DNA of 64,000 nucleotides from a virus: the UHGV virus genome UHGV-0293664; one strand, 5' to 3'. Positions 25,666-53,685 of this stretch are shown here, piece by piece. Within the stretch, counting starts at the first letter, position 1. Every line of letters begins with the position of its first letter. The notes beneath the pieces were generated by a model. The model was not told the DNA's origin and made no database searches. It saw only the letters and a program-made list of their open reading frames with translations. Made by a program: the position numbers and the translations under genes.

Positions 25666-27035
25666 TGGAAAAAGGGCAGTATGATGTAGGCACAGATGCT
25701 GCCCTTGTTGCAATCATGAGCGGTGAGAATGTCTTCGTTTCAGGACCCGCAGGTTGTGGGAAGACGTACCTCATCAACATGATCCAGTCAATGTATGGAG
25801 ACTCTTGCATAACGGTTGCCCCGACAGGGGTAGCCGCTTTAAACGTTAATGGAGCAACAGCACACCGAACCTTCGATCTTGCAGCAGGTGTGAGCATGGA
25901 GTCAGACTGGACCGCAATAAGGGCAAAAACAGCAAAGCCTTTGAAAAGCAAGGCATTTACCATCCTAATTATCGATGAAATCTCTATGATCCGTGCTGAT
26001 AAGTTTATAGAGATGGATAGGAAACTCCGCTTCCTTCGAAAAAATGACAAACCTTTCGGAGGCATACAGGTCATATTGTTTGGCGATTTTTACCAGGCAC
26101 CTCCTGTTGTCTCTTCTATGGAGAAGGAGGCCTACTTCAACTTCTACCACACAGACCTATGTTGCTATACCGAATCTTGGAAAGAGCTTGACCTTCACAA
26201 CATAGCCCTAATAGACCAGTTCCGACAGGAGTCTATTCGATTTGCCACAATGCTCAACTGTGTTCGTGAGGGTCGTCGCATAAAAGAGGTTGTAGCAGAA
26301 CTTAATGCTCGCTGTTACAAAGGCGGTGTACCAACAGACGCTCTCACAATTTGCGCCACCAACAAACAAGCAGAGGAAGTGAACAGAAGGTTCTATGATG
26401 CCATCAACGCCCCAGAGAAGGTATACACTGGTGAAATGAAGGGTAAGTTTCCCTCCACCCTGCCAGTGGAGCAGGAGATGAAGTTGAAAATTGGCATGAA
26501 AGTTATGATAACCGCCAACGATGTTGACCCGACGCACAAAGTACCTTATTATGTTAACGGAACACGTGCCACAATTGTTAAATTTAAGAACAAGGCGGTG
26601 GTGGTAGAGCTTGAAGATGGAACACAGGTTGACATAGAGCAGAGGTTGTGGGAGAATAACGAGTATAAGCCATCTCAGAGATACAACATTGCAGAAAGGA
26701 AGATGGAGAAGTTTATAGAGAGGGTAGTGATTGGGTCATACAAGCAACTTCCTCTGAAATCTGGGTACGCCGTAACATCTCATAAAAGTCAAGGACTTAC
26801 GTTAGATTGTTACAACCTAGACCTTGGAAAGAACGGAGCTTTCTCTCCTGGTATGACGTATGTTGCTTTGAGTAGAGTTAAGACAATACAAGGAATAAAC
26901 TTGTTGCGTCCACTAAGAGAGGTTGACATTATTGTTGACCCGCGAGTCGTAGAGTTTTACAATACAACATTCCCTGACTTAGACAAAATTGTCAGGAAAG
27001 ATTTTGAAACCAGAGCAGAAGAGGGGGACGTATGA
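25665..27035 (+). CDS. SF1B DNA helicase (Dda/RecD/Pif1-like)
   Basis: 456 aa; Walker A GPAGCGKT; Walker B IIDEISM; TSHKSQG motif. Confidence 0.9.
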   Translation: MEKGQYDVGTDAALVAIMSGENVFVSGPAGCGKTYLINMIQSMYGDSCITVAPTGVAALNVNGATAHRTFDLAAGVSMESDWTAIRAKTAKPLKSKAFTILIIDEISMIRADKFIEMDRKLRFLRKNDKPFGGIQVILFGDFYQAPPVVSSMEKEAYFNFYHTDLCCYTESWKELDLHNIALIDQFRQESIRFATMLNCVREGRRIKEVVAELNARCYKGGVPTDALTICATNKQAEEVNRRFYDAINAPEKVYTGEMKGKFPSTLPVEQEMKLKIGMKVMITANDVDPTHKVPYYVNGTRATIVKFKNKAVVVELEDGTQVDIEQRLWENNEYKPSQRYNIAERKMEKFIERVVIGSYKQLPLKSGYAVTSHKSQGLTLDCYNLDLGKNGAFSPGMTYVALSRVKTIQGINLLRPLREVDIIVDPRVVEFYNTTFPDLDKIVRKDFETRAEEGDV

Positions 27036-27373
27036 GTTTGTGGAGAAATATCGTTAACTACGTGTGTGGCAATCCAACCCCTGAAGAGAAGGATGTTGTG
27101 ATTCACGATTTTACTAAAAGATCTCGTGAAAAAGATCTACTGCTAACAAAGGTGACTGATAAAGATCCCGCAGTAGGGGACTGGGCAGGTTTTGCATTTA
27201 CATCGGACAAATACACCTTTAACAAAGGTGACTACCTTGTTGTGGATTTTAACGAAGACATTGAGGGTGCTGAACCTTACTATCAGACCCTTATTGTTGC
27301 AGGGTGTGTTGATCTCTCTGCAGGTATGCACAGTTTGATTCTTTTTGAGCTTGACTCTGAAGACCTTGAGTAG
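27032..27373 (+). CDS. hypothetical protein
   Basis: 113 aa; start overlaps helicase stop. Confidence 0.7.
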   Translation: MSLWRNIVNYVCGNPTPEEKDVVIHDFTKRSREKDLLLTKVTDKDPAVGDWAGFAFTSDKYTFNKGDYLVVDFNEDIEGAEPYYQTLIVAGCVDLSAGMHSLILFELDSEDLE

Positions 27374-27433
27374 TAAGATGTGAGTCTAAAGGGGAGGCAC
27401 TCCTCCCCACAAAAACTAAGGAAGCACTAAACG

Positions 27434-27736
27434 ATGAAACGTTATAAACCATACACTTTTGAAATCGATTTCGAACTTGACGATATGTTTACTGTGGAGG
27501 CTCAGGCAGTTGTCCAGTTGCCAGACCCGGAGTGCCGTGATTCTGATGTTGACTATTACGGATTTAGACAAATTACCGATGTGCATGTTTACCACAACGG
27601 TGAAGAGGTGGACTTCTACAAATTGCCAAACGATATGCGCCACTCAATTTACAAACGTGCAGCCCGTGAACTAGATTCCTATCTGGATGCAGCGACGACA
27701 GCAGCTGCATTTGCCGAAGAAGTGGGAGGTTTCTGA
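27434..27736 (+). CDS. hypothetical protein
   Basis: 100 aa; SD AAGGAAG. Confidence 0.7.
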   Translation: MKRYKPYTFEIDFELDDMFTVEAQAVVQLPDPECRDSDVDYYGFRQITDVHVYHNGEEVDFYKLPNDMRHSIYKRAARELDSYLDAATTAAAFAEEVGGF

Positions 27737-28143: not shown

Positions 28144-28626
28144 ATGTCAGATTTTATGTGGAAAGTAGGCTATGCCACTCCTGAAATGTGTGAGGCTTGC
28201 TTTGTGAAAATAGGCCGCGAGGATATCGACAAAGTGATCCTTAAGTTTCGTGATGTAGCTGTGATCGGCAACCGAGTGCTTAAGCACTTAAAGAATCTGA
28301 AGCTAACCAAAAAGAAGTTCTTCGGACTTTTCGAAGAGAAAGTTGATGCTTGGACCCATTGCATTCAGGAAGCGAAATCTCACTACAGTGCTATCGTTAC
28401 TCCAGAACGGGTAGCTAAGATGGAAGGATTCATCAACAGCACAGAATTTGAGTGTCTGAAAGCTGCACTCGATAGTTATCCGAAATGCCTCAAGCACTTG
28501 GACAAGTATGTAGAAAAGGATGGGGAAATGTATCTCACCCTAGACGCATATTATGAGATGCAAGAAATTTTAAATTTAGATTTGACATTGGTATCCACCG
28601 AGTATACAATAGGTATCCGGGTTTAA
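28144..28626 (+). CDS. hypothetical protein
   Basis: 160 aa; SD AAGGAGAG. Confidence 0.75.
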   Translation: MSDFMWKVGYATPEMCEACFVKIGREDIDKVILKFRDVAVIGNRVLKHLKNLKLTKKKFFGLFEEKVDAWTHCIQEAKSHYSAIVTPERVAKMEGFINSTEFECLKAALDSYPKCLKHLDKYVEKDGEMYLTLDAYYEMQEILNLDLTLVSTEYTIGIRV

Positions 28627-28633
28627 CACTAGG

Positions 28634-28659
28634 CCCTGCCCGAAAGGGTGGGGCTTTTT
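28634..28659 (+). terminator. intrinsic terminator with GAAA tetraloop (copy 1 of 2)
   Basis: CCCTGCCC-GAAA-GGGTGGGG then CTTTTT; same hairpin at 39347. Confidence 0.75.
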
Positions 28660-28677
28660 GCATTAGGAGACAGCAAA

Positions 28678-29289
28678 TTGAAATTTATATACAAAGAACA
28701 CTACCACAAAGGTGTTGTGTGGAGTCTATTTGACGGGTCTGGTGGTGCAGTCATTGACTGGGCAAAAGCTGGGTACCTGTGCCTGTGCTTTAATGCAGAA
28801 GGTGCTGATCACGGCAGTTATGCAGAGGTGATCACCGATCATCCCAACATTCACTATGTTGATTATTGGATTGACCCATGGTTCCCTCAGGAAACTTTTT
28901 GCATGTACCCAGCTCCAGACTTTATTCTTGCATTTCCTCCGTGCACGCATTTAGCGGTGTCAGGTGCTGCACATTTTAAGAAAAAGCTGGCTAAGGACCC
29001 CCTGATCCAAATTAATGCTGTAAAGGATGCTCGGGTTGCGGAAGAGCTGGGAGAGATTTACGATTGCCCGTGGCATGTAGAGAATCCTGTGGGTGTTATG
29101 TCCACACTGTGGCGCAAACCTGTCCCGCAAATAGTTGACGTGGTTAGCGGGTATTCCATGCAACACGCCAAGCTGGGTGGAAAGAGTGCAAGAACGAAGA
29201 TGATTCGAAGCCTCACACCACGTGGCTGGGCAAAAGCCGTATTCTTAGCAAACGAGCCTGTAGTAAGGAGCAGAATTAATGGGAAGTAA
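28678..29289 (+). CDS. DNA cytosine-5 methyltransferase-like protein (catalytic core only)
   Basis: Motif I LFDGSGG...AG; motif IV FPPCTHLAVSG (PC dipeptide); motif VI HVENPVG; start uncertain (TTG 28678 after AGGAG; track start 28648 lies inside terminator). Confidence 0.7.
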   Translation: MKFIYKEHYHKGVVWSLFDGSGGAVIDWAKAGYLCLCFNAEGADHGSYAEVITDHPNIHYVDYWIDPWFPQETFCMYPAPDFILAFPPCTHLAVSGAAHFKKKLAKDPLIQINAVKDARVAEELGEIYDCPWHVENPVGVMSTLWRKPVPQIVDVVSGYSMQHAKLGGKSARTKMIRSLTPRGWAKAVFLANEPVVRSRINGK

Positions 29290-31415: not shown

Positions 31416-32150
31416 ATGAACGAGTTCAGAGATCACTGTGTAGCCAATCACTTGTGGTCAGAGATATTGGAGTATGACGGTCAAAATCTTTTTTGGAAGA
31501 TAGACATTCTGGCAGGTAGCGGTGTAGGATATGTTAAAACTTCAGCAGGCTCTAGAGCTGACAAGGGGCAAGATGCTGATGGCAGGCCTGTGGTCAGTCT
31601 AGGAAAGCATTGCACTAAAGGTGCCCACGTCATAATTTGGGAAATGTTTAACGGTCCTGTACCGGAAGGGTATGAGGTTGACCACATCAAGGAGATAAGA
31701 GAAACAGGTGGTGTGGCTGATAACAGTATTCAAAATTTGCAACTGCTCGAGCCTACAGATAACAAAAAGAAAAGTTGCAAGATACCTCGTAGTAACAACA
31801 AGTCTGGTAGGGTCGGGGTGCACTATTCTGAAGAAAGAGAGGCATGGATAGCTCAAGGCACAGATTCTGCAGGTGAAAGAGTCTGGCTAGGCCAGTACAG
31901 AACTTTTGAAGAGGCAGAGTGGGCAAGAAAGTTCTTCGAAGATAATGGTTTTTCGCACAAGAGTGGAAGAGCCGTGCAGTATAATAACACCAGCGGTTGC
32001 TCAGGGGTGAATTGGGATAAAACCCATGAAAGATGGGTAGCCAGAATTTATGTAGATGGTAAAAGGAAATGCCTTGGGTATTTCAAGAACAGAGAAGATG
32101 CAATAGCTGCAAGAAAGAGTGCTGAGAAGAAACAGGAGGAGACAGTATGA
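31416..32150 (+). CDS. HNH homing endonuclease with AP2-like DNA-binding domains
   Basis: 244 aa; HNH core EVDHIKE...N..NLQLL; two AP2-like repeats (GVHYSEEREAWIAQ..., GVNWDKTHERWVARIYVDGKRKCLGYF). Confidence 0.85.
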   Translation: MNEFRDHCVANHLWSEILEYDGQNLFWKIDILAGSGVGYVKTSAGSRADKGQDADGRPVVSLGKHCTKGAHVIIWEMFNGPVPEGYEVDHIKEIRETGGVADNSIQNLQLLEPTDNKKKSCKIPRSNNKSGRVGVHYSEEREAWIAQGTDSAGERVWLGQYRTFEEAEWARKFFEDNGFSHKSGRAVQYNNTSGCSGVNWDKTHERWVARIYVDGKRKCLGYFKNREDAIAARKSAEKKQEETV

Positions 32151-43477: not shown

Positions 43478-43700
43478 GAATGATAATCATTCTCGTTTGC
43501 AGAATAACGGGCACCCCCGGTGATTGTCTCCCGGCCCCTGTTGCCCCGGCTTGTTATTATAGTATCACACAGGACAAAGAAAGCAAGGACTTTTTGCATA
43601 AATTTTTAGACGATAATGATAATCGTTCTCATTTCATGCAGCGCCCATCCCCGGTGGTTGTCTCCCCCGTCACCGGTGCCTGCCGTCCTTTCGATATGTA
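43478..43700. repeat. tandem duplication (~120-bp unit) each carrying a GC-rich box ...CCGGTG(A/G)TTGTCTCCC...
   Basis: Both units start GATAATC.TTCTC.TTTC; boxes at 43510-43550 and 43641-43688. Confidence 0.6.
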
Positions 43701-43838
43701 TATTGTGCCACCTGGCGGGGCCGCTGTCAACACTTTTCAAAAAATTTTTCTAACCTGATGCGCTAACCGTTGCAACCTGGCGGGGCCAGCCTGGCAGGTC
43801 CGCGTTATAAAGTAAACAGCTACGGAAGAGGTACAAAA

Positions 43839-43988
43839 ATGAAAGGTAATGCTACTCGCCTGGAAAATGTAGTAATTGATGATACGGAAGCTATCGCCCT
43901 GGTCGAGAAGGTTGAAACGGAAGCGCGGGAACATAAAGAAGAGTACGAAAAAATGGTAGTTAACCTGGCGGGGGCGATTCTATCATAA
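43839..43988 (+). CDS. small hypothetical protein (49 aa)
   Basis: ATG 43839 after GGAAGAGG; the longer track ORF from 43770 starts inside repeats. Confidence 0.5.
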   Translation: MKGNATRLENVVIDDTEAIALVEKVETEAREHKEEYEKMVVNLAGAILS

Positions 43989-44088
43989 AAATAATTTAAA
44001 ATAATCGTTGACAGCTCGGACAGCTATTGTTATTCTTATCCTCGCAAGGTGAACAACACCACACCAATTAACAGAGAGGATAAAAATC

Positions 44089-44286
44089 ATGAACGCCTAC
44101 GGAATTAAAGTACGTCGCAACACCCGCCAGGTGGTCACCGATCAAATGGTTTGCCGGGTGGATGTAACCATCAACAACGGGCAAGGCCTTTATAAATTTC
44201 GTCGCGGTCATAGCTATACCCTGCAGCAGCTTAATCGTTGCGCCCTGACAAAAGGTCAGATCAACCACTGGTTTAATAAAAAATAA
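44089..44286 (+). CDS. early small protein
   Basis: 65 aa; SD GAGAGGA. Confidence 0.75.
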   Translation: MNAYGIKVRRNTRQVVTDQMVCRVDVTINNGQGLYKFRRGHSYTLQQLNRCALTKGQINHWFNKK

Positions 44287-44289
44287 ATA

Positions 44290-44318
44290 TTGACATGTAG
44301 TCTGAAACAAAATATACT
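44290..44318 (+). promoter_or_regulatory. sigma70-like promoter
   Basis: TTGACA-17 nt-TATACT. Confidence 0.65.
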
Positions 44319-44350
44319 GAAAGCACAAAAGACACTAAGAGGATAAAATC

Positions 44351-44749
44351 ATGAAAACCACAACCTTTAATTTTGACAATGCTAACTTCTCTTTTTCTGA
44401 TGTTAAAAGCTGCCGCCGTGATCGCGGATTCTACAAGGCCTATAATCTGGTTGTCTTGGACGATGATAATAATTTGCACGAAGTAGCGGAGATCCGGTAC
44501 TATGCCGCCGCCAGCGGTAACACTCACTACTGTGTATTTTGGATTCACGACAACAAGAACAATAAGTACGGTTATACTGGCGGCAAGGCGAGCGGTCACG
44601 GTTATGATAAAGCCAACGCTGCACTTGAAAGCGCATTAAGTGCCATGGGAATCACTGCCGACGGCTGGATCTATGAAGAAGAGTTTTTGGCGGCACTTGC
44701 TAACCGCTTGGGCTATAAAAAGCACATTGTAACGTGCGCCCACGAATAA
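44351..44749 (+). CDS. early protein
   Basis: 132 aa; SD AAGAGGA. Confidence 0.75.
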   Translation: MKTTTFNFDNANFSFSDVKSCRRDRGFYKAYNLVVLDDDNNLHEVAEIRYYAAASGNTHYCVFWIHDNKNNKYGYTGGKASGHGYDKANAALESALSAMGITADGWIYEEEFLAALANRLGYKKHIVTCAHE

Positions 44750-44838
44750 AAAAAAAAAATTATTGACACGCTGCAAAATTAAAGTAAACTAGACACAAAA
44801 GGCGGGAATATTTCCCGCCAACACAAAGGAAAAAGATC

Positions 44839-45243
44839 ATGAATAAGAACGTACGCCGCATCATGAACGAGTTGGCAAACGATGAAAAAATTATTGACAT
44901 GCATTTGATCAACATTTGCCGCCGTTGTGTAACATATAACAACCGCGCCGCAAAAGCGCGTGAGATGAACGCAAAAGGTACCTTAAAGCCATTCCAGGTG
45001 GTGGTAAAGGCCATTAAAGATGTAACTAATACGGCAAACCAGGTACAGGGGAACACCAACGAGAGTACCAATATTGATCCGTCTTACGTAATGAAACGGA
45101 TCCGGACTTGCAAGAATAAAGAGCAGGTGTATAACGTCATAGATTGGCTGGACTCCCTGGGTGATGTGGTTTACAATAGGTTTTCTGCAGCTATCGAGAT
45201 CCAGCTTGACAGATTAGACGGGAAAGTACTAAAAACTTATTGA
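44839..45243 (+). CDS. early protein
   Basis: 134 aa; SD AAAGGAAAAAGA; preceded by TTGACA box and GGCGGGAAnnTTCCCGCC leader hairpin. Confidence 0.75.
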   Translation: MNKNVRRIMNELANDEKIIDMHLINICRRCVTYNNRAAKAREMNAKGTLKPFQVVVKAIKDVTNTANQVQGNTNESTNIDPSYVMKRIRTCKNKEQVYNVIDWLDSLGDVVYNRFSAAIEIQLDRLDGKVLKTY

Positions 45244-45290
45244 GTTTATTTTTAGATGGCCTTGACTTCAGGGCCATCAATAAAGTAAAC
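45244..45290 (+). repeat. conserved post-stop hairpin element, copy 1
   Basis: TTTATTTTTAGATGGCCTTGACTTCAGGGCCATCAATAAAGTAAAC; 7-bp stem GATGGCC/GGCCATC. Confidence 0.6.
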
Positions 45291-45323
45291 TAACCACAAT
45301 TGAGCGGAAAAGGAGGCTTAAAG

Positions 45324-45443
45324 ATGAGCACTACACGCCAGCACACAAAGGTAACTATTATCGTTTGCATCATTGGTTACATCCTGGCGCAAATGTTGAT
45401 GAGTAGCGCCAACAGTTTTGCAAAATTTTTCTTAAATTTTTAA
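45324..45443 (+). CDS. possible small hydrophobic peptide (39 aa)
   Basis: ATG after AAGGAGG; MSTTRQHTKVTIIVCIIGYILAQ...; not in ORF track. Confidence 0.45.
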   Translation: MSTTRQHTKVTIIVCIIGYILAQMLMSSANSFAKFFLNF

Positions 45444-45471
45444 TTGACAAGCTAACCCAAATCGGTATACT
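45444..45471 (+). promoter_or_regulatory. sigma70-like promoter
   Basis: TTGACA-16 nt-TATACT. Confidence 0.65.
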
Positions 45472-45522
45472 TAAACACGTAAACGGGAAAACTTCCCAAA
45501 ACACACAAAAGGAGAAAACACC

Positions 45523-45864
45523 ATGACTACTATGACCGCCGAAGAAAAAGCCCTGCAGATCGCCGCTCTGAAAAAACAGATCGCAGACCTTGAGAATAAG
45601 ATCGATAACTTTGAAATCGACGAGGACAAGTACGACGAAAACTATGATGAATGGCTAGACGAGGTTTATGGCGAAATTATGATCGGAAACATTTCTTTTC
45701 TTCCGTCGCGTATCCTCAAGGAGTTAGATCCTATCGCTTACCGCTGCGGATTTAGCGACTACATCGACAGCCTGGATATTGAGGACGATGAAGAGTACCA
45801 AGAATTGCAGACAGAGATTGAAGAAGTGAAAGAAGAGCTTTCAAAGCTGGAAGAAAACGAGTAA
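45523..45864 (+). CDS. early acidic protein
   Basis: 113 aa; SD AAAGGAGAAAA. Confidence 0.75.
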   Translation: MTTMTAEEKALQIAALKKQIADLENKIDNFEIDEDKYDENYDEWLDEVYGEIMIGNISFLPSRILKELDPIAYRCGFSDYIDSLDIEDDEEYQELQTEIEEVKEELSKLEENE

Positions 45865-45912
45865 AATTTATTTTTAGATGGCCTTGACTCCAGGGCCATC
45901 AATAAAGTAAAC
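45865..45912 (+). repeat. conserved post-stop hairpin element, copy 2
   Basis: AAATTTATTTTTAGATGGCCTTGACTCCAGGGCCATCAATAAAGTAAAC. Confidence 0.6.
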
Positions 45913-45954
45913 TTTATACTGTTAACACTGAACTACTGCAAAGGAGTTAAAACC

Positions 45955-46200
45955 ATGGCAGCACTAATCACCAAGTATTATGCCCCTACTAACACCAAAA
46001 GCGCCCGTATCATGGTAAAAGGCTTCGGACGTAAAAAGGTTTACACCTGGGATTATGCCTTAGATACGGAAGACAACTACACCAACGCGATGACCGATTT
46101 TATTAATGAGCTGAACACGCGGATCTTGACAAATTATAAAATTACCGATATTGCCTATATAGGGGAAGGCGGGATCTGTTTTGTCGGTATCGTCAAATAA
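45955..46200 (+). CDS. early protein
   Basis: 81 aa; SD AAAGGAG. Confidence 0.75.
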   Translation: MAALITKYYAPTNTKSARIMVKGFGRKKVYTWDYALDTEDNYTNAMTDFINELNTRILTNYKITDIAYIGEGGICFVGIVK

Positions 46201-46275
46201 ACTATTTTTTCGGTGGTCCTGGCTGCAGGGCCATCTATAAAGATAATTTATTAACACCGTGAAAGGAGAAAGTAC

Positions 46276-46629
46276 ATGATCAGCGGGGCTAGTTTTATTA
46301 TTGGCGCTATTGCTACGGCTTTAATTGTAAACAAGATCCAATCTAAAAACGAAAAAGATAGCAACGCGCTCACAGAATACCCATTTTGGGTATTCAACGA
46401 CAACGAAGACTACATAATCAAGTACAAGAATGAGAAGGGCGACCAGGTAACACCGCGACCGATCCCGGCTTACAAAATGCAAGAAACACTATACCGCCTA
46501 AAGGCTGGAGGCGCAAAAATCGTAGACTTTTGGGGATATGATTGCAAGGATCAGGAGGTTATAAAACGGCGTATCCGGGCGATTCAGGCAAATATCGAGA
46601 TCAGTAAGGGGGGAAGTTATGAAAATTAA
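46276..46629 (+). CDS. early protein with N-terminal hydrophobic segment
   Basis: 117 aa; SD AAAGGAGAAAG. Confidence 0.75.
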   Translation: MISGASFIIGAIATALIVNKIQSKNEKDSNALTEYPFWVFNDNEDYIIKYKNEKGDQVTPRPIPAYKMQETLYRLKAGGAKIVDFWGYDCKDQEVIKRRIRAIQANIEISKGGSYEN

Positions 46630-46816
46630 TTTCGAAAAAATTGTAAAGCGCCCCCACGATTCCGAAGAGCTGCCGGAACGCCGCCAGCGCAACAATAAAC
46701 TGAATAAACCGAAAAGATTTGGGAAGATCTGGCGGAATCATTATGATCGTAAACTGCCTGGCCTACTCTTGGAACGTGAACGACAGGCGGAACGATACCG
46801 CCACAAAGGCAAATAA
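46619..46816 (+). CDS. small basic protein
   Basis: 65 aa; SD AAGGGGGGAAG; overlaps upstream stop. Confidence 0.6.
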   Translation: MKINFEKIVKRPHDSEELPERRQRNNKLNKPKRFGKIWRNHYDRKLPGLLLERERQAERYRHKGK

Positions 46817-46824
46817 CAACCAAC

Positions 46825-46853
46825 GCCCCGCCATTGTGCGGGGCTTTTTATTT
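46825..46853 (+). terminator. intrinsic terminator
   Basis: GCCCCGC-CATTGT-GCGGGGC then TTTTTATTT. Confidence 0.8.
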
Positions 46854-46997
46854 CTATCCTACGAATAGCGCCCCTGGTTGGTCCCACAAACGCCACAAAA
46901 GCCCCTACCTATGCAATCCCCTTTCTTAGTCTGAAAACATCGCCCAGGGCCGTTTTATGGTGTTAAAAATAGCATTGACAGTGATTTTATTTAAAGC

Positions 46998-47026
46998 TTG
47001 ACACCTTGGAATAGCCCAGATATACT
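46998..47026 (+). promoter_or_regulatory. sigma70-like promoter
   Basis: TTGACA-17 nt-TATACT. Confidence 0.65.
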
Positions 47027-47061
47027 AACCACATCAAAGCAAGAAGGAAGGAGTAAACGCC

Positions 47062-47322
47062 ATGCGTAAATTAAAAAATTTTGATAAAGTCGATATTGTC
47101 CTGAATAATTTTTACTACTGCAATAATAAAGCCGTTTGGTGGCGTGATAGTTCCACCGATAAAGTTAAAGCGCGCTTTCTCCAGGGGCACTGGCAAGGCC
47201 GCCCAGTGATTAAGATCCTGGGGCAATCGGTAGCGTTTAAAAATTGCCGCCGTGTTGATGACGTTGAAGAGATTCTAAACATTTTACGCCACAATAATTT
47301 AAAAAATAGTGTTGACAAGTAA
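47062..47322 (+). CDS. early protein
   Basis: 86 aa; SD GAAGGAAGGAG. Confidence 0.75.
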   Translation: MRKLKNFDKVDIVLNNFYYCNNKAVWWRDSSTDKVKARFLQGHWQGRPVIKILGQSVAFKNCRRVDDVEEILNILRHNNLKNSVDK

Positions 47323-47339
47323 ATCTTGATAAGTATACT
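47312..47339 (+). promoter_or_regulatory. sigma70-like promoter
   Basis: TTGACA-16 nt-TATACT; followed by GGCGGGAAAACTTCCCGCC leader hairpin. Confidence 0.65.
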
Positions 47340-47396
47340 TAAACACACAGGCGGGAAAACTTCCCGCCACTAACAAAGAAAATAGGAGAAAATATC

Positions 47397-48020
47397 ATGA
47401 CCACCGTTAACATTACCGCAGGTTACAATTTATCTTTCGACGTGCTGACCGACGAACAAAAAGAAAAAGCTATTGAAATGGTCCGCGAAAGAGAAGAACA
47501 CAGCGGAGAGGATTTTTTCGCAGAAAGTGTAATTGAATATTATAAAGAACAAGTTTTTCCAGAGTACGGCCTTGAAGATACCGAAGTACATTGGTCCGGA
47601 TTTTGGTGTCAAGGCGATGGCGCGTCAATTAGTGCTGAAAATGTAGACTTAGAAAAATTCTTGCGTAAAGTAAAGGCCCTGACCAAGTTCCGATCAATTC
47701 GTCACTTGTTCGGCACAATGCACGATGGCGAGTTATCAGCCAGTATTGAACGCGACAAGTACAGCCATTACAGCCATGAAAACACTGTAAACGGATACAT
47801 TGATACCACCTGGATAAATCTGACCGCCAAACAAGAAAACAAAGTGGAAGACCTGGAAGAGCTGATCACCGAGACGGCACGGGAGCTATCCCGTAAGGTT
47901 TACGTAGACCTGGAGGAGGCCTATCTAGAACAGTTCACTACCGAAAACCTGATCGATCTTATTAAGGCTAATGATTGGCGGTTTGATGTAGATGAACATG
48001 GCGAGATGACTTTTTCATAA
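47397..48020 (+). CDS. early acidic protein
   Basis: 207 aa; SD AAATAGGAGAAAA. Confidence 0.8.
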   Translation: MTTVNITAGYNLSFDVLTDEQKEKAIEMVREREEHSGEDFFAESVIEYYKEQVFPEYGLEDTEVHWSGFWCQGDGASISAENVDLEKFLRKVKALTKFRSIRHLFGTMHDGELSASIERDKYSHYSHENTVNGYIDTTWINLTAKQENKVEDLEELITETARELSRKVYVDLEEAYLEQFTTENLIDLIKANDWRFDVDEHGEMTFS

Positions 48021-48109
48021 ATAAAGTGTTGCAATAACCTAAAAACCTGCTATATTAAAACTCAAGGGGCAAGACGTTTGCCCCCACACAAAACAAAGAG
48101 GAAAACATC

Positions 48110-48490
48110 ATGAAAAACACTACTAAAGCTATTGACACCGTTATGTTTAACCTGGTTACCTTTCGCGAGGATATGAAAGATCTTCCGCGTGAAACAGTGT
48201 GCGACCATATCGAAAACTATCGCAAACTAATCAAAAAGTTGCCTTTAAAACGTGATCAGTATGCGGCTAACGCCATGCTTAATGCCATGATCAAAAAGAT
48301 GATCCAGTGTGATTTAACTCTGGCCTATGATTATGCAGGTGGTCGTTTTGCAGTATACAATCAGCCCGTGCCTGGTATGAGCACCACAGAAGAATTGCAC
48401 GCGTTAAATCTAAAACAAGACGTGTGGGATAGCATGCCTCGCGTGGTGGTATGGGTAGAAAGCGGGAAGATTTACGGCGATAATTTTTAA
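48110..48490 (+). CDS. early protein
   Basis: 126 aa; SD AAAGAGGAAAA. Confidence 0.8.
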   Translation: MKNTTKAIDTVMFNLVTFREDMKDLPRETVCDHIENYRKLIKKLPLKRDQYAANAMLNAMIKKMIQCDLTLAYDYAGGRFAVYNQPVPGMSTTEELHALNLKQDVWDSMPRVVVWVESGKIYGDNF

Positions 48491-48500
48491 TCAGATAACA

Positions 48501-48532
48501 GGCGGCGGCATATTTGCCGCCGCCTTATTGTT
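48501..48532 (+). terminator. intrinsic terminator
   Basis: GGCGGCGGC-ATATTT-GCCGCCGCC then TTATTGTT. Confidence 0.75.
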
Positions 48533-48560
48533 AAACAGAACTGCAAAAGAGGTACATAGA

Positions 48561-48932
48561 ATGGAATTTATTATTTTGGCTGTATTGGTTGCCTTGTTTA
48601 ACGCCTGGATTGCTGGCAAGATGGGCAGATCCGCCTTTTTATGGTTTATTATATCTATTTTCCTGGGGGTGGTTGCAACTATTGTATTGGTTATCCTTGC
48701 AATTGTTGACAAGGGGAATAATAGAAAGGGTAAAGTATTTTCAGACCTGTACGACGCTCAAACGTTTGTCAACGCATATTATAGTGATCTTCCAGTCTCC
48801 CTACGCTGCAGCCTGGCACAACAAGTTTTCGATGAGGCTAAAACCAGAGATCAAGCCCATGAGATATGTTTAACTGAGGCGGATCGCCTATTTGAGAGGA
48901 ATAGAAAATATGTGGGCCAACCGTTTAAATAA
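48561..48932 (+). CDS. membrane protein
   Basis: ATG 48561 after AAAGAGG; two hydrophobic helices. Confidence 0.7.
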   Translation: MEFIILAVLVALFNAWIAGKMGRSAFLWFIISIFLGVVATIVLVILAIVDKGNNRKGKVFSDLYDAQTFVNAYYSDLPVSLRCSLAQQVFDEAKTRDQAHEICLTEADRLFERNRKYVGQPFK

Positions 48933-49155
48933 TGCCACGTTAATTAATCCCTTTAGTGAAGATTTGAAGCCAGCCGCCTGGCGTGATGGATTCAATACCG
49001 AACGCTTTATTTTCAGGCCTGATCTTGAGGAATTTTATAACAATGGATCGAACAACGACAGAGATAATTTTTCTTGTGATGTGCGTGGTGATGGTACTCC
49101 TGGGGGCCATTGTAAACCACGTCACTACTACCAGGGGGAAAGGGGGAGACGATGA
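48910..49155 (+). CDS. hypothetical protein
   Basis: ATG 48910 after GAGAGG; overlaps upstream gene end. Confidence 0.5.
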   Translation: MWANRLNNATLINPFSEDLKPAAWRDGFNTERFIFRPDLEEFYNNGSNNDRDNFSCDVRGDGTPGGHCKPRHYYQGERGRR

Positions 49156-49271
49156 CACCCAAGGATAAGCCACGCACCAATAAGGCGCGCCGTGTTATGG
49201 TGTGGCTGGAGATCATCGCCCTTGAAATATTGCTAGGCGTAGGGATGTACTTTATCGCTGTAAGTAACTAA
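49152..49271 (+). CDS. possible small membrane peptide (39 aa)
   Basis: ATG after GGGGGAGA; MTPKDKPRTNKARRVMVWLEIIALEILLGVGMYFIAV; terminator follows. Confidence 0.45.
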   Translation: MTPKDKPRTNKARRVMVWLEIIALEILLGVGMYFIAVSN

Positions 49272-49275
49272 GAAC

Positions 49276-49303
49276 GGCCCCCCGATCATGGGGGCCTATC
49301 TTT
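49276..49303 (+). terminator. intrinsic terminator-like hairpin
   Basis: GGCCCCC-GATCAT-GGGGGCC then TATCTTT. Confidence 0.55.
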
Positions 49304-49326
49304 AAAAAAATTTTTCTTCCGGGGTG

Positions 49327-49354
49327 TTGCAATCCGGTCCGGAATGTGGATAAT
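49327..49354 (+). promoter_or_regulatory. sigma70-like promoter
   Basis: TTGCAA-16 nt-GATAAT. Confidence 0.55.
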
Positions 49355-49409
49355 AACAATCAACGGGGAGCTAATCCCACCACCACAAAAACCAGAAAGG
49401 AGAAACAAA

Positions 49410-49610
49410 ATGAGCAACAATATCCGCGTTATTAACTTCAAAAAAGAAGAAAAAATTGCCGTGCTGATTGACGGTCAAGAAATCTTCAAGGGCGACTATG
49501 AAGATCATCAAACGGCGATTAGTATCACCCGCGTGATTGGTTACCATAATTTCTACCCCCAAGGTGCTGAGGCAGCAGTTAAACGAATCAAAGAGATTGT
49601 AGGCCTGTAA
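49410..49610 (+). CDS. early small protein
   Basis: ATG 49410 after AAAGGAGAAAC; 66 aa. Confidence 0.7.
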   Translation: MSNNIRVINFKKEEKIAVLIDGQEIFKGDYEDHQTAISITRVIGYHNFYPQGAEAAVKRIKEIVGL

Positions 49611-49658
49611 AATTTATTTTTAGATGGCCTTGACTCCGGGGGCCATCAATAAAGTAAA
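49611..49658 (+). repeat. conserved post-stop hairpin element, copy 3
   Basis: AAATTTATTTTTAGATGGCCTTGACTCCGGGGGCCATCAATAAAGTAAAT. Confidence 0.6.
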
Positions 49659-49702
49659 TTTAAACCCTGTTAAAATAATCAGTGCAAAAAGGAGTAATGA
49701 TC

Positions 49703-50002
49703 ATGTTTATACCCGCCAATAATCTTTATTTCTTTGATGGTCAAATCGTAGACGGCGTGGAAGTTGAGATCACCGGGTGCCCTGGTGGTCAGGCTATGAC
49801 TTTTCGGAATAATGCTTTTGATGATTCTCATATCGTTATGAGAATGGAAGTTACGAAGCTGGACGACAAGAAAACACTTATTGACTATTCTGTGAAAGAT
49901 CATCCAGACTACCGCATGATCCATGGCGATTTGTGCAGTGTTGACCGTGACAAGGTGGGCGGCATTGTGATCGCTATTGTGAACGATGTTTTCTCAAACT
50001 AA
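49703..50002 (+). CDS. early protein
   Basis: ATG 49703 after AAAGGAG; 99 aa. Confidence 0.7.
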   Translation: MFIPANNLYFFDGQIVDGVEVEITGCPGGQAMTFRNNAFDDSHIVMRMEVTKLDDKKTLIDYSVKDHPDYRMIHGDLCSVDRDKVGGIVIAIVNDVFSN

Positions 50003-50019
50003 TTTCAGCAGGTGATTTT

Positions 50020-50370
50020 ATGAAAGTCAAACTATATTACCTTAATGAGCTTAACCCCCTTGCCCAGGTCCGCGCCCTGGCTAATACCTTGATTTGTGAG
50101 AAATCTGCATATTGTGTTGAGCTTAACGCCATGCGTGAACGTCTCAAAGGGGGTTACTTCGACATCCATGCTGCAATCAACGGCCTGAATATGGAATTTA
50201 TACGCTTACGTAACAGCCGCCGGAATCTGGCAAGAATGGAACAAGATCCGGCCCACCTTCGTAAGCTGGTTATTGAAAATCATCTGATGTTTAATGCCGA
50301 GGGTGATTATTACCATTTTCACCGCAAACGCTGGTACCGTGGCGGCAATACAGGCAAGAATGCAAAATAA
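50020..50370 (+). CDS. early protein
   Basis: 116-aa ORF; weak SD. Confidence 0.65.
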   Translation: MKVKLYYLNELNPLAQVRALANTLICEKSAYCVELNAMRERLKGGYFDIHAAINGLNMEFIRLRNSRRNLARMEQDPAHLRKLVIENHLMFNAEGDYYHFHRKRWYRGGNTGKNAK

Positions 50371-50571
50371 GGCCCCAGGCAGGGCCTGCAGCGATATAAT
50401 CACATAAAGGCTATGCGGTTGCATGGCCTTTATTATTTTAGCGTTACAGCGACCCCCAAGGCGCTTAAAAAAATTTTAAAGAAGTACTTGCATCAAGCCC
50501 TACAATATGGATAATAGGACGTGTCGGGGGGCGGCCCCCAATCATTAACCGGATAGATAGGAGTTAAAACC

Positions 50572-50856
50572 ATGGCTATTGTTACCGCTGGCGATGTAGT
50601 AGAAATGGAAGCAAAATACTTAAAAGCGGGTATGCATATCCTACGCAACGATCTTGAACTGGTCCTGACAATGGTTGACTATAACCCAGGGCAAGATTAT
50701 CCAAGTGTTGACTACTTTTTTAGGTATGTTGATGAAGAATTAAAAGAGGATGAGGCTTATCAGGGCGAATTCTGTAATTTCTTTTGCTCTGATGAGGTTG
50801 TAAAAGTTATCTATCAACCTGGCGTACCTTTCCCGTTGCACGCTATCAATAAATAA
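50572..50856 (+). CDS. early protein
   Basis: 94 aa; SD ATAGGAG; TTGCAT-17 nt-ATAATA box upstream. Confidence 0.75.
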   Translation: MAIVTAGDVVEMEAKYLKAGMHILRNDLELVLTMVDYNPGQDYPSVDYFFRYVDEELKEDEAYQGEFCNFFCSDEVVKVIYQPGVPFPLHAINK

Positions 50857-50911
50857 ACCTGGCGGGGCCGAAAAGGCCCCCAATTATGAAAATAAAGAGA
50901 GGTAAATCATC

Positions 50912-51145
50912 ATGATGGAACAAATTAAACGCGCTGAGGCTATTAATGGCAATGTGATCTACTTTGTCAGCAAAAACGAAAAAGGCGTACCATATGCGGC
51001 GGTAATAGTACAGCCTGACGGTGATTATTGGTTTACTGTGTACGGCGCTTATTCTTTCGGGCGTCCGGTGCATGATAGAATTTTGAAAGTAGCGAACCCC
51101 ACCGGGAAGAATATCACGGCAGAAAAATTTTTTGAAAATAATTGA
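50912..51145 (+). CDS. early protein
   Basis: 77 aa; SD AGAGAGG. Confidence 0.75.
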   Translation: MMEQIKRAEAINGNVIYFVSKNEKGVPYAAVIVQPDGDYWFTVYGAYSFGRPVHDRILKVANPTGKNITAEKFFENN

Positions 51146-51169
51146 CAACGTTTTAAATTAGTTTAAGAT
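51142..51169 (+). promoter_or_regulatory. sigma70-like promoter
   Basis: TTGACA-16 nt-TAAGAT then conserved GTATCACGTAGGG start region. Confidence 0.6.
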
Positions 51170-51226
51170 GTATCACGTAGGGGAGACAAGCGCCCTATTA
51201 AACGCAACAGGAAGAGGATAAACACC

Positions 51227-51466
51227 ATGAAAAGCAATAAAGGTTATAACGGTTACAAAAACAAAACTCATTGGAATGTAAGCCTTTGGATTAATAACGA
51301 TGAGTCATTGTACCGGTTGGCCCAAGGCTTTATCAACGCTAATGCTAATCGTAATGATGCGGCGCGGGATATGATGCTTTTTCTGGAGCTAACCGGACAA
51401 GATAAGACCCCGGACGGCTTCAAGTACAGCACTACGGCGATCCGTGCCGCGATGGTTGGAATGTGA
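51227..51466 (+). CDS. early protein
   Basis: 79 aa; SD GAAGAGGA. Confidence 0.75.
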   Translation: MKSNKGYNGYKNKTHWNVSLWINNDESLYRLAQGFINANANRNDAARDMMLFLELTGQDKTPDGFKYSTTAIRAAMVGM

Positions 51467-51475
51467 TAAAATAGC

Positions 51476-51503
51476 TTGACACTGTTTTTTATTCTGGTAT
51501 AGT
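51476..51503 (+). promoter_or_regulatory. sigma70-like promoter
   Basis: TTGACA-16 nt-TATAGT. Confidence 0.6.
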
Positions 51504-51645
51504 TTATCACATAGGACGGCACGACAGAGTACTACGGATTCGAGGGTGTCCGGTGCGGTGAACTTGCTCGCGACCTTAAGGAAGATCCAGACCTGGAAGA
51601 TCTGCCCATCACCGTAAACGGGAAAACTTACGTAAACCGTTAACC

Positions 51646-51780
51646 ATGAGAAAGATAATCATCACCTTGGGGATTGTGGCGGGATCGCTGGCGCTCTTTC
51701 CCCTTATGGTTAGATATGTGCTGATCAGTATTGTCCTGATAGTTAGTGATTTATTGGAAACGGTTGGCACCTTGTTTTAA
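51646..51780 (+). CDS. possible small membrane peptide (44 aa)
   Basis: MRKIIITLGIVAGSLALFPLMVRYVLISIVLIV...; no clear SD; not in ORF track. Confidence 0.3.
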   Translation: MRKIIITLGIVAGSLALFPLMVRYVLISIVLIVSDLLETVGTLF

Positions 51781-51792
51781 AGAGCGGTAAAA

Positions 51793-51984
51793 ATGAATAT
51801 CGAACAAGTTAGAAAGGTATTGGCGGTACTGCGTTATCATAATCATAGAAAGGTCATAGACGATCCTGATTATGTCGATTCAAGCCTGGAAGGGGATACA
51901 CTACAAGCCATAAGCAACATGCAAGAATTGCTAAAGCGCATGACAGAGAAAAACAGATCTGATTATATAGGTGACGAGATCTAA
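51793..51984 (+). CDS. early small protein
   Basis: 63-aa ORF; weak SD. Confidence 0.6.
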   Translation: MNIEQVRKVLAVLRYHNHRKVIDDPDYVDSSLEGDTLQAISNMQELLKRMTEKNRSDYIGDEI

Positions 51985-51990
51985 AATAGC

Positions 51991-52018
51991 TTGCACAATG
52001 TATCTGATAGTGTAAGAT
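51991..52018 (+). promoter_or_regulatory. sigma70-like promoter
   Basis: TTGCAC-16 nt-TAAGAT then GTATCACGTAGGG as at 51170. Confidence 0.6.
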
Positions 52019-52068
52019 GTATCACGTAGGGCGGCAATAGTGCCGCTCACAACTGGAAGGAAAACACC

Positions 52069-52272
52069 ATGACTACAGCTAACCGCCTGATCGCCGTCCT
52101 GAACAAAGCAAAGGCTAACCGCCTGGATGTTCAAATCAAAGAGCAAGCAAATGGCGAGATCCTTGCTACGGTGTCCGATGGCGGTTATGTATCGGAATCA
52201 TTTTTATCAGGGAGCTTAGATCATCTTGTTTGGAAATTAGAAATTATCGTGGAGGATATGCAGATCATCTAA
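52069..52272 (+). CDS. early small protein
   Basis: 67 aa; SD GGAAGGAAAA; terminator-like hairpin follows. Confidence 0.75.
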   Translation: MTTANRLIAVLNKAKANRLDVQIKEQANGEILATVSDGGYVSESFLSGSLDHLVWKLEIIVEDMQII

Positions 52273-52326
52273 TCTTTACAAAACAGGGCTTGTTTTTATC
52301 CTGTTTTTTGTTATACTTGTTTCACG

Positions 52327-52372
52327 GCAGGCACCTGGCGACGGGGGGAGACAATCACCGTGGGTGCCTGTC
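52327..52372 (-). repeat. inverted copy of the GC-rich box found at 43510 and 43641
   Basis: GGGGGGAGACAATCACCGTGGG is the reverse complement of CCACGGTGATTGTCTCCCC-type box; flanked by CAGGCACC/GGTGCCTG. Confidence 0.6.
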
Positions 52373-52476
52373 ATGTAAGAACTATAAAAACCGTTGACAT
52401 CTGCCAGGGGGTGGGGTAACATTTATCTTGAAGGGGCAAAAGTGCCCACACAACAACCAGAAGAGAGGAAAACATT

Positions 52477-52749
52477 ATGTCAAGCTGGATTAATCAAGAA
52501 GTCGAATCACGTTTTAATGCTATTTGGGATCTCATCGAAAAAGAGGACGGAACATCAAGCCCCTACCTCAACAATTTGGAATTCCATTTTGTGGAAGCGA
52601 TGAACGCAGAACATGATCACGAAGGTGGTGCGGATGAATTCGCTAAAGGATATGGCTTCAACAATGCCAACGAAATGATCGAGGCGGTTGTACTCCAGGC
52701 TGAGGAAGATTATCAATTAAAAACGCTTGAATTCTGCCGCCGTAAGTAA
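52477..52749 (+). CDS. early protein
   Basis: 90 aa; SD AGAGAGGAAAA. Confidence 0.75.
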   Translation: MSSWINQEVESRFNAIWDLIEKEDGTSSPYLNNLEFHFVEAMNAEHDHEGGADEFAKGYGFNNANEMIEAVVLQAEEDYQLKTLEFCRRK

Positions 52750-52811
52750 TAAGATAATGACACGGGCCAAAAGGCCCACTAAACAAAAACCACATAAAGA
52801 GGAAAAACATC

Positions 52812-53075
52812 ATGAAACGCCTTGATCAGCTCAAATTAGTTCAATATATGGCTTATCGTGTTCTTGAAGTCCAGAAAGGTAGCAAAAAAGAGGTTTGCGA
52901 GAAAGCTTATAAGATCTTCACTCGCAAAAAAGATGACTGGATGCTACGCCAGACCAAAAAGGCTGACATCTTGGGGTACCTGGAAGAAGAGATCCGACTT
53001 GAAGAGCAAGAAGAGATCCGCCGTAGTGAGGCAGATTATCAGGCCGCTTGGGAAAACTGGATGAGCAACAAATAA
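52812..53075 (+). CDS. early protein
   Basis: 87 aa; SD AAAGAGGAAAAA. Confidence 0.75.
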   Translation: MKRLDQLKLVQYMAYRVLEVQKGSKKEVCEKAYKIFTRKKDDWMLRQTKKADILGYLEEEIRLEEQEEIRRSEADYQAAWENWMSNK

Positions 53076-53140
53076 TACAACAAGGTGCACGGTCAGGGGC
53101 TTAAAGCCCCTTGATCACATAAAAATTATGCTATCCCTGG

Positions 53141-53169
53141 TTGACAGGGATCGGCAGTTTTGCTATATT
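53141..53169 (+). promoter_or_regulatory. sigma70-like promoter
   Basis: TTGACA-17 nt-TATATT; -35 embedded in CCCTGG...CAGGG inverted repeat. Confidence 0.6.
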
Positions 53170-53218
53170 CTTTTTTGAAGGGAAGTTGTAAGAAAATTAA
53201 CTAAGAGGTAAAAACACC

Positions 53219-53638
53219 ATGAACATTAAATCTAATAATCCGGCATATAGCTTTGATAACGCTTTTTGTCACGGTCCGGCGGCGAAAGGATTCGAAATCG
53301 ATGGTAAACTAATTATTGTCAATGTTGACGGGGAAGAGGTTGCAGTATATCCGGTGGCAGACGTAAAAAGCCGTTTACAATGCCGCATGGATGTTACCGC
53401 CTATCAGCTTGATCCGGTCCGCATAGTTGCCCTGGTCCTGGAGGAAGAAATTAAAGCCATGCACCATAGCAACAGGTTTATTGGTGACGCTCAGGATAAT
53501 ATGAAGGTGTGCCGCCATAAAGTTAATGAAGTGCTTAAAGAGTACGGCTATAAGGATTTAATGATCAAGCGTGATGAAAAATTCCGCTACCGTAACGACC
53601 TGGCAAATCGGATTTTTGAAATATACGAATCATTATAA
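53219..53638 (+). CDS. early protein
   Basis: 139 aa; SD TAAGAGG. Confidence 0.8.
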   Translation: MNIKSNNPAYSFDNAFCHGPAAKGFEIDGKLIIVNVDGEEVAVYPVADVKSRLQCRMDVTAYQLDPVRIVALVLEEEIKAMHHSNRFIGDAQDNMKVCRHKVNEVLKEYGYKDLMIKRDEKFRYRNDLANRIFEIYESL

Positions 53639-53656
53639 TTTCTTAACTGAATTATC

Positions 53657-53685
53657 AAGGGGCTTAAAGGCCCCTTTCTTTTTGT
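53657..53685 (+). terminator. intrinsic terminator closing the plus-strand early block
   Basis: AAGGGGC-TTAAA-GCCCCTT then TCTTTTTG. Confidence 0.8.

Follow-up and report, generated by a model that had tools for sequence, protein, structure and literature searches.

The window analysed here is a stretch of 64,000 nucleotides of a viral genome (UHGV virus genome UHGV-0293664), and the gene under study lies on its plus strand, directly upstream of the primase-helicase gene, which it overlaps (Table 1). Its reading frame is open from 28648, and the best start is the TTG codon at 28678, which gives a protein of 203 residues ending at the stop at 29289. This start is favoured by the GGAG sequence in front of it, and three related phages, WalterGehring, rV5_ev147 and bov10K2, are annotated with this TTG as their start. 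The protein carries motif I, motif IV with its Pro-Cys dipeptide and motif VI of C5-cytosine methyltransferases in canonical order. Both this order of motifs and the position next to the primase-helicase gene had been put forward in the original prediction, made from the letters of the window, and both held.

Two further signals stand just 5' of the methyltransferase start. A match to a sigma-70-like promoter is followed, about 20 nt further on, by a strong hairpin with a T-run, and the hairpin is identical in WalterGehring, where the order of promoter match, terminator-like hairpin and gene is also kept. The pair could provide read-through control or could be two unrelated signals.

Table 1. 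Features at and around the methyltransferase gene (positions in the window).
Feature	Position	Strand	Remarks
Sigma-70-like promoter match, TTGACA, 17 nt, TACAAT (11/12)	28582..28610	+	Consensus scan only; inside 3' end of upstream ORF
G+C-rich hairpin and T-run, terminator-like	28631..28660	+	Between upstream ORF and methyltransferase gene; consensus match only
Putative ribosome-binding site GGAG	28666..28669	+	9-12 nt 5' of TTG start; read from sequence
CDS, 203 aa, deletion allele of Vequintavirus Dcm-like C5-cytosine methyltransferase	28678..29289	+	
Motif I, LFDGSGG (residues 17-23), AdoMet-binding loop after strand beta-1	28726..28746	+	
Motif IV, FPPCT, catalytic Cys89	28933..28947	+	P87, P88, C89 and T90 invariant in family alignment
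Motif VI, ENP (residues 135-137), Glu135	29080..29088	+	Invariant in family alignment
Deletion junction, sole remaining AAACCTG copy	29116..29122	+	Relatives have 153 bp more
Motif-IX-like block IRSLTPRG, retained near C-terminus	29203..29226	+	Conserved/invariant in family alignment
Primase-helicase gene, 692 aa	29279..31357	+	Overlaps methyltransferase stop by 11 nt

The DNA around the gene was 96-98% identical to that of more than 100 rV5-like phages of the genus Vequintavirus, for example WalterGehring (Bas51), rV5_ev147, slur16, JES2013 and bov10K2, and the window is itself an rV5-like Vequintavirus. Synteny is kept: as in the other vequintaviruses, the gene stands between a gene for a hypothetical protein of 160 residues and the primase-helicase gene, overlapping the latter. 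In the relatives the gene is 765 bp long, encodes 254 residues and is annotated as 'Dcm-like C5 cytosine methyltransferase' or 'DNA cytosine methyltransferase'; the WalterGehring copy (bas51_0074 / QXV85584.1, 254 aa) bears the first of these names, and the second in PGAP. The original prediction had allowed for a novel enzyme, which is not supported in view of the Dcm-like annotation in phages 98% identical to this one and of the published 5-methylcytosine (5mC) activity of a member type of 54% identity, described below.

A query of 2001 bases from the window mapped as two pieces onto 2154-2157 bases in every best match, and by tblastn the 203-aa protein spanned 762 nt in the relatives. Pairwise alignments of both protein and DNA showed a single clean gap of 51 codons after ...STLWR. 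The window copy thus shares with the Vequintavirus Dcm-like gene the locus, the TTG start, the upstream hairpin and 99% identity over the retained residues, but it lacks 51 internal codons. In four of the four relatives checked, the sequence AAACCTG occurs at nt 439 and nt 592 of the gene, exactly 153 bp apart, whereas the window gene has one copy, at nt 439. The missing codons read KPDYRF...IIPAT or equally DYRF...PATKP, because the repeat leaves the end points ambiguous. To judge from the sequence, this in-frame gap of 153 bp bounded by a 7-bp repeat is what a deletion between short direct repeats leaves behind. The protein had earlier been described as ending soon after motif VI; its C-terminus is in fact intact, and what is missing in comparison with every close relative is this internal block.

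We searched for the deleted form elsewhere. NCBI and Logan each have a record of precisely this 203-aa product, on one contig of 138 kb. By tblastn, no phage record encoded a product at least 95% identical to it, and among the phage matches listed the junction was never found in one piece but always as two pieces 153 bp apart. A scan of plasmids for the junction gave no real match, the one matching plasmid record having the full-length gene, and nothing in the complete genomes of E. coli matched the gene region. Scans for the exact junction in IMG/VR and the JGI metagenomes returned nothing, and that of GTDB genomes returned only a single chance match of 20 nt, in an Acidobacteria MAG where the flanking sequence is unrelated. 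We take the 203-aa gene to be a real but rare allele. Presence on only one contig would also fit an error of assembly or sequencing, in a phage whose real gene has the normal 765 bp, but this is very improbable: the same product came from two sources, the gap measures exactly 153 bp, keeps the frame and has the direct repeat that marks slippage or microhomology, and a repeat of 7 bp is too short to confuse an assembler.

Between the window and its relatives, the retained codons showed 8-11 synonymous and 1-2 non-synonymous differences, and among four Vequintavirus relatives the block that is deleted in the window showed 0-4 synonymous and 0 non-synonymous differences. These counts indicate that the gene was under purifying selection until very recently and that the deletion is young.

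Public assemblies also contain several alleles of this Vequintavirus gene that are truncated or frameshifted (P0124, P0127, P0129, P0130 and P0008; the region corresponds to 28678-29060 of the window). Two of them are frameshifted in an A-run coding KKK (residues 101-103) and one after INAV. These alleles could reflect homopolymer sequencing errors or recurrent natural inactivation.

Profile searches assigned the window protein to phrog_757, 'DNA methyltransferase', with E 3.9e-64 and a match split into two stretches, whereas full-length relatives matched the same family in one stretch (E 2.6e-86 and 3.1e-85). Because of this match, the resemblance in motifs reflects real homology and not chance. 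A search of 5.8 billion protein clusters gave 1583 homologues at E <= 1e-3; among the matches listed, the best 120 of the 1583, they were 225-258 residues long, fragments aside, and the architecture of the window protein was absent. Pfam and NCBIfam did not recognise the window protein. It had no match to PF00145, the full-length relative P0001 likewise had none, and NCBIfam gave nothing on full-length relatives. PF00145 was matched by 14 of 34 family members (E <= 0.1), and three of the five tested exceeded the gathering score of 22 bits; the match was limited to motifs I-IV, at profile positions 4-94. These matches and the published activity of a homologue, described below, support the family as a true C5-methyltransferase family.

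Comparison with canonical enzymes reached the same part of the protein. With hhalign, the family aligned with M.HhaI (sequence entered by hand) over motifs I-IV only, with E 0.054; motif I, which is conserved in the family, fell on DLFAGLGG, and Cys89 on Cys81. For this reason the deleted block cannot be placed on the canonical motifs by sequence. With phmmer, the PDB sequences yielded only a marginal match (E 0.43), between motif I and its counterpart in M.HaeIII; the family profile found no match among them.

Few parts of the family are as well conserved as the deleted block. In an alignment of 34 sequences, about 20 of its positions were at least 90% conserved, with the consensus PDxxFHPxEYGGYLPEDDxHPxFPEYIxPRDAYPKKTCLWxGNGF, which is absent from the window protein. 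Downstream of it, the window protein retains GGKS and, after it, IRSLTPRG, in which I, R, S, L, P and R are invariant in the same alignment. Motif IX had been described as missing; this block resembles motif IX and is largely invariant in the family. A GN motif X was not recognisable in the family sequences. No member of the family (225-258 aa) has a large target-recognition domain; there is only a short variable loop before GGKS, and this loop is retained in the window copy. The compactness that had been noted in the window protein, with no recognisable target-recognition half, is therefore in part a true trait of the family.

We examined structure models of both forms. The AlphaFold2 model of the full-length relative P0001 (pLDDT 89, pTM 0.89) showed a Rossmann-type sheet, to which the deleted block contributes strands at 150-152 and 184-189 and a helix at 154-160; the Lys182 counterpart lies within the block. 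From the order of strands we infer that the two modelled strands occupy the places of canonical beta-6 and beta-7 (motifs VII-VIII). The model of the window protein reached pLDDT 76, with residues 147-177, including GGKS...RSLTPRG, below 50, and with the cofactor-binding half (strands beta-1 to beta-5) retained at high confidence; AlphaFold confidence is not a measure of stability. In Foldseek, the full-length model ranked the catalytic domains of DNMT3A and DNMT3B first (E 2e-7). For the window model, the alignment with DNMT3A shrank to about 145 columns at the N-terminus (E 1e-4), and the scores of generic Rossmann enzymes were similar.

These results bear on whether the 203-aa protein is itself a functional minimal cytosine-modifying enzyme that does without motifs VII-VIII or a target-recognition domain. 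Motif I, the PPC cysteine, ENP and the conserved C-terminal block are all intact and in frame, and the N-terminal half is still predicted confidently. We nevertheless regard a working minimal enzyme as highly improbable, since the missing block is highly conserved, with no amino-acid change among the relatives, the architecture is missing from the best 120 of the 1583 homologues, fragments aside, and the predicted structure is lost after the junction. Moreover, there is almost no other difference from the full-length alleles, which leaves no time for adaptation. The original prediction had weighed a truncated or non-catalytic relative, and this came close to the truth, except that what was lost is an internal segment, removed in frame and in this genome specifically, and the protein does not represent a natural minimal architecture.

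A characterised homologue of the full-length protein is the KarlJaspers-type Dcm. A dcm gene of 711 bp from a KarlJaspers-like Drexlerviridae phage is the trigger of retron Ec86, and this dcm, of phage K42, raises 5mC on msDNA in vivo as measured by LC-MS (bioRxiv 10.1101/2023.08.16.553469). In the same study, CCTGG in the msDNA stem was needed for Ec86 defence, and a C82A/E128A/K175A/K176A mutant of dcm was inactive. Four of four Ec86 escapers carried lesions that disrupt or potentially disrupt dcm, namely a deletion of 2,262 bp, a frameshift at nt 451 and an upstream point mutation (bioRxiv 10.1101/2023.08.16.553469). Because escapers delete it, dcm of K42 is dispensable. A later paper also described Eco1 as activated by a phage cytosine methyltransferase (PMC12916289).

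The KarlJaspers gene (bas06_0055) has 711 bp and encodes 236 residues, and its product belongs to the same PHROG as the full-length Vequintavirus protein, with 54% identity over 235 aa (E 1e-86). Cys82 and Glu128 of KarlJaspers align with Cys89 and Glu135, both of which are retained in the window copy. K175/K176 align with K182/I183 of the vequintaviruses, inside the block deleted from the window; the published lysine changes were made jointly with those of Cys82 and Glu128, so that no weight can be assigned to either lysine by itself. The nt 451 frameshift of the escapers cuts the protein short about 10 residues beyond the site at which the deletion in the window starts.

Taking the evidence together, we consider it very probable that the gene is a recent, most likely inactive, in-frame deletion allele of a known, dispensable and compact phage C5-cytosine methyltransferase. 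The parent enzyme of 254 residues has a Rossmann-type AdoMet core, a PPC catalytic loop, ENP and only a tiny region for target recognition, and its homology with the KarlJaspers-type Dcm predicts that it methylates cytosine at C5 in double-stranded DNA. Slippage or recombination between the two AAACCTG repeats, 153 bp apart, then removed 51 codons, and with them the strands assigned to the beta-6/beta-7 position, about 20 near-invariant residues and the counterpart of the Lys-Lys pair (Lys-Ile in vequintaviruses). The remnant keeps the cofactor-binding half and the catalytic Cys but most likely cannot hold or flip a DNA substrate. It is probably inactive, because the substrate-side block and two core strands are lost, as judged from the alignment and the models. 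As the deletion is in frame, and motif I, the Cys, ENP and the C-terminal block survive, some residual or altered activity of the 203-aa protein is still conceivable. The reading as inactive concerns an allele from a single contig, and it takes the activity of the Vequintavirus orthologue from the homologue only.

An inactive remnant might still serve a non-catalytic role, such as binding AdoMet or a protein partner. The cofactor-binding half, beta-1 to beta-5, is still there and has a high-confidence model, and the deletion left untouched the reading frame, the signals for the start and the overlap with the primase gene. A random deletion preserves the frame one time in three, however; no evidence points to such a role in any member of the family, and the allele was not found in other lineages in the phage records or in the scans of IMG/VR, GTDB and JGI. 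We therefore think a retained role of this kind very unlikely.

A separate matter is why the allele exists. The deletion could have been positively selected, if loss of Dcm lets the phage escape a defence that senses methylation, either retron Ec86/Eco1 or a methylation-dependent nuclease. Selection of this kind is compatible with an inactive deletion allele as the main explanation. It would mean that the Vequintavirus Dcm is a liability in the wild, and that the phage lost the activity without disturbing the reading frame or the coupling of translation to the primase gene. In its favour, laboratory escapers of Ec86 disrupt or potentially disrupt the homologous dcm, one of them by the frameshift that truncates so close to the start of the window deletion, and PMC12916289 also refers to Eco1 being activated by phage Dcm. 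Public assemblies contain several alleles of the gene with truncations or frameshifts, and the window also lacks an N6-adenine methyltransferase cassette common to most relatives. On the other hand, the Ec86-sensitive phages were reported as Drexlerviridae, Siphoviridae and Demerecviridae, and vequintaviruses were not mentioned among them (bioRxiv 10.1101/2023.08.16.553469). The allele is on one contig only, and a dispensable gene can vanish neutrally during propagation. The truncated alleles lie partly in the A-run and may be sequencing errors, and the N6-methyltransferase cassette is also missing in 30 of 117 relatives, which makes its absence ordinary. On balance, selected loss appears unlikely, attractive though its likeness to the laboratory escapers makes it.

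The original prediction had also connected the gene with CCWGG-containing boxes that recur in the early region. The window contains 137 CCWGG sites against 111 +/- 9.8 expected, so that they are mildly in excess and not avoided. Nothing tied CCWGG to the gene; the count is uninformative as a clue to its function. The target of the full-length Vequintavirus enzyme may be CCWGG, and for the phage dcm that triggers Ec86 this specificity was assumed by analogy with the host Dcm (bioRxiv 10.1101/2023.08.16.553469). CCTGG is dense across 43700-53800 of the window, with, for example, six copies at 43711-43968 and runs in 47.8-49.1 kb and 53.1-53.7 kb; this density adds to the overall excess of CCWGG, and the stretch may be the repeated boxes that had been named. 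In the literature on vequintavirus methylomes and restriction we found no assay of the Dcm-like enzyme. Vequintaviruses were exceptionally sensitive to the restriction-modification systems tested in the BASEL study, so even the intact enzyme would be no broad shield.

Several features of the surrounding region were observed along the way. In WalterGehring and most relatives, a cassette of 1.33 kb for a putative N6-adenine methyltransferase of 441 residues (WalterGehring record L001, 1097-2429) stands between the homologues of the ORFs at 27032-27373 and 27434-27736; the window lacks it at 27373-27434, and tblastn found no copy of this methyltransferase elsewhere in the window. Since the insert is absent from the 30 relatives as well, the N6-adenine methyltransferase is an accessory gene. 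Between the primase-helicase and DNA polymerase genes, the window has an ORF of 244 residues (31416-32150; compare L001, 6570-8154), annotated in WalterGehring as 'putative homing endonuclease'. The polymerase CDS of WalterGehring is annotated as two joined pieces, which hints at an intervening element in some relatives. About 16 records of 'Campylobacter phage' (MG065654-MG065682; host Campylobacter jejuni) were 97-100% identical here to the vequintaviruses of E. coli, which suggests that these deposits are mislabelled or contaminated.

More than 100 near-identical phages already carry an annotation for this gene family, and for one member type both an activity and a role as retron trigger have been published. 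The locus also carries a caution: what appeared to be a minimal enzyme is a one-off deletion allele, revealed only by comparison with relatives. At the same time, it is a natural loss-of-function candidate in a gene whose loss in the laboratory defeats retron Ec86. This phage and a full-length relative form a ready pair for asking whether the vequintavirus Dcm is sensed and what site it methylates.

Among known enzymes, the canonical bacterial C5-methyltransferases M.HhaI, M.HaeIII and E. coli Dcm are about 100 to more than 200 residues longer than members of this family, which lacks their large target-recognition domain and GN motif X and has PCT in place of their PCQ. CmoX (PDB 8YF3) is a phage DNA cytosine C5-carboxymethyltransferase, marked by an SPPC motif, an Arg at the position of HhaI Asn304 (motif X) and, usually, CmoA as a neighbour (PMC12783734). 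The present family has FPPC, not the SPPC of CmoX, and no alignable motif X, and we did not assign the gene to CmoX. As modelled, the parent protein resembles the catalytic domains of DNMT3A and DNMT3B in its Rossmann core and very small target-recognition region, at 12-15% identity and with modest TM-scores of about 0.5, but the DNMT3 enzymes are eukaryotic, possess motif X and work as oligomers; the phage Dcm was likewise superposed on DNMT3A in the earlier study (bioRxiv 10.1101/2023.08.16.553469). The KarlJaspers Dcm has the same compact architecture as the Vequintavirus protein in a different genomic context. The loop before GGKS reads DNPGW in KarlJaspers and GYSMQH in vequintaviruses, and because of this difference the specificity may differ between the two subtypes.
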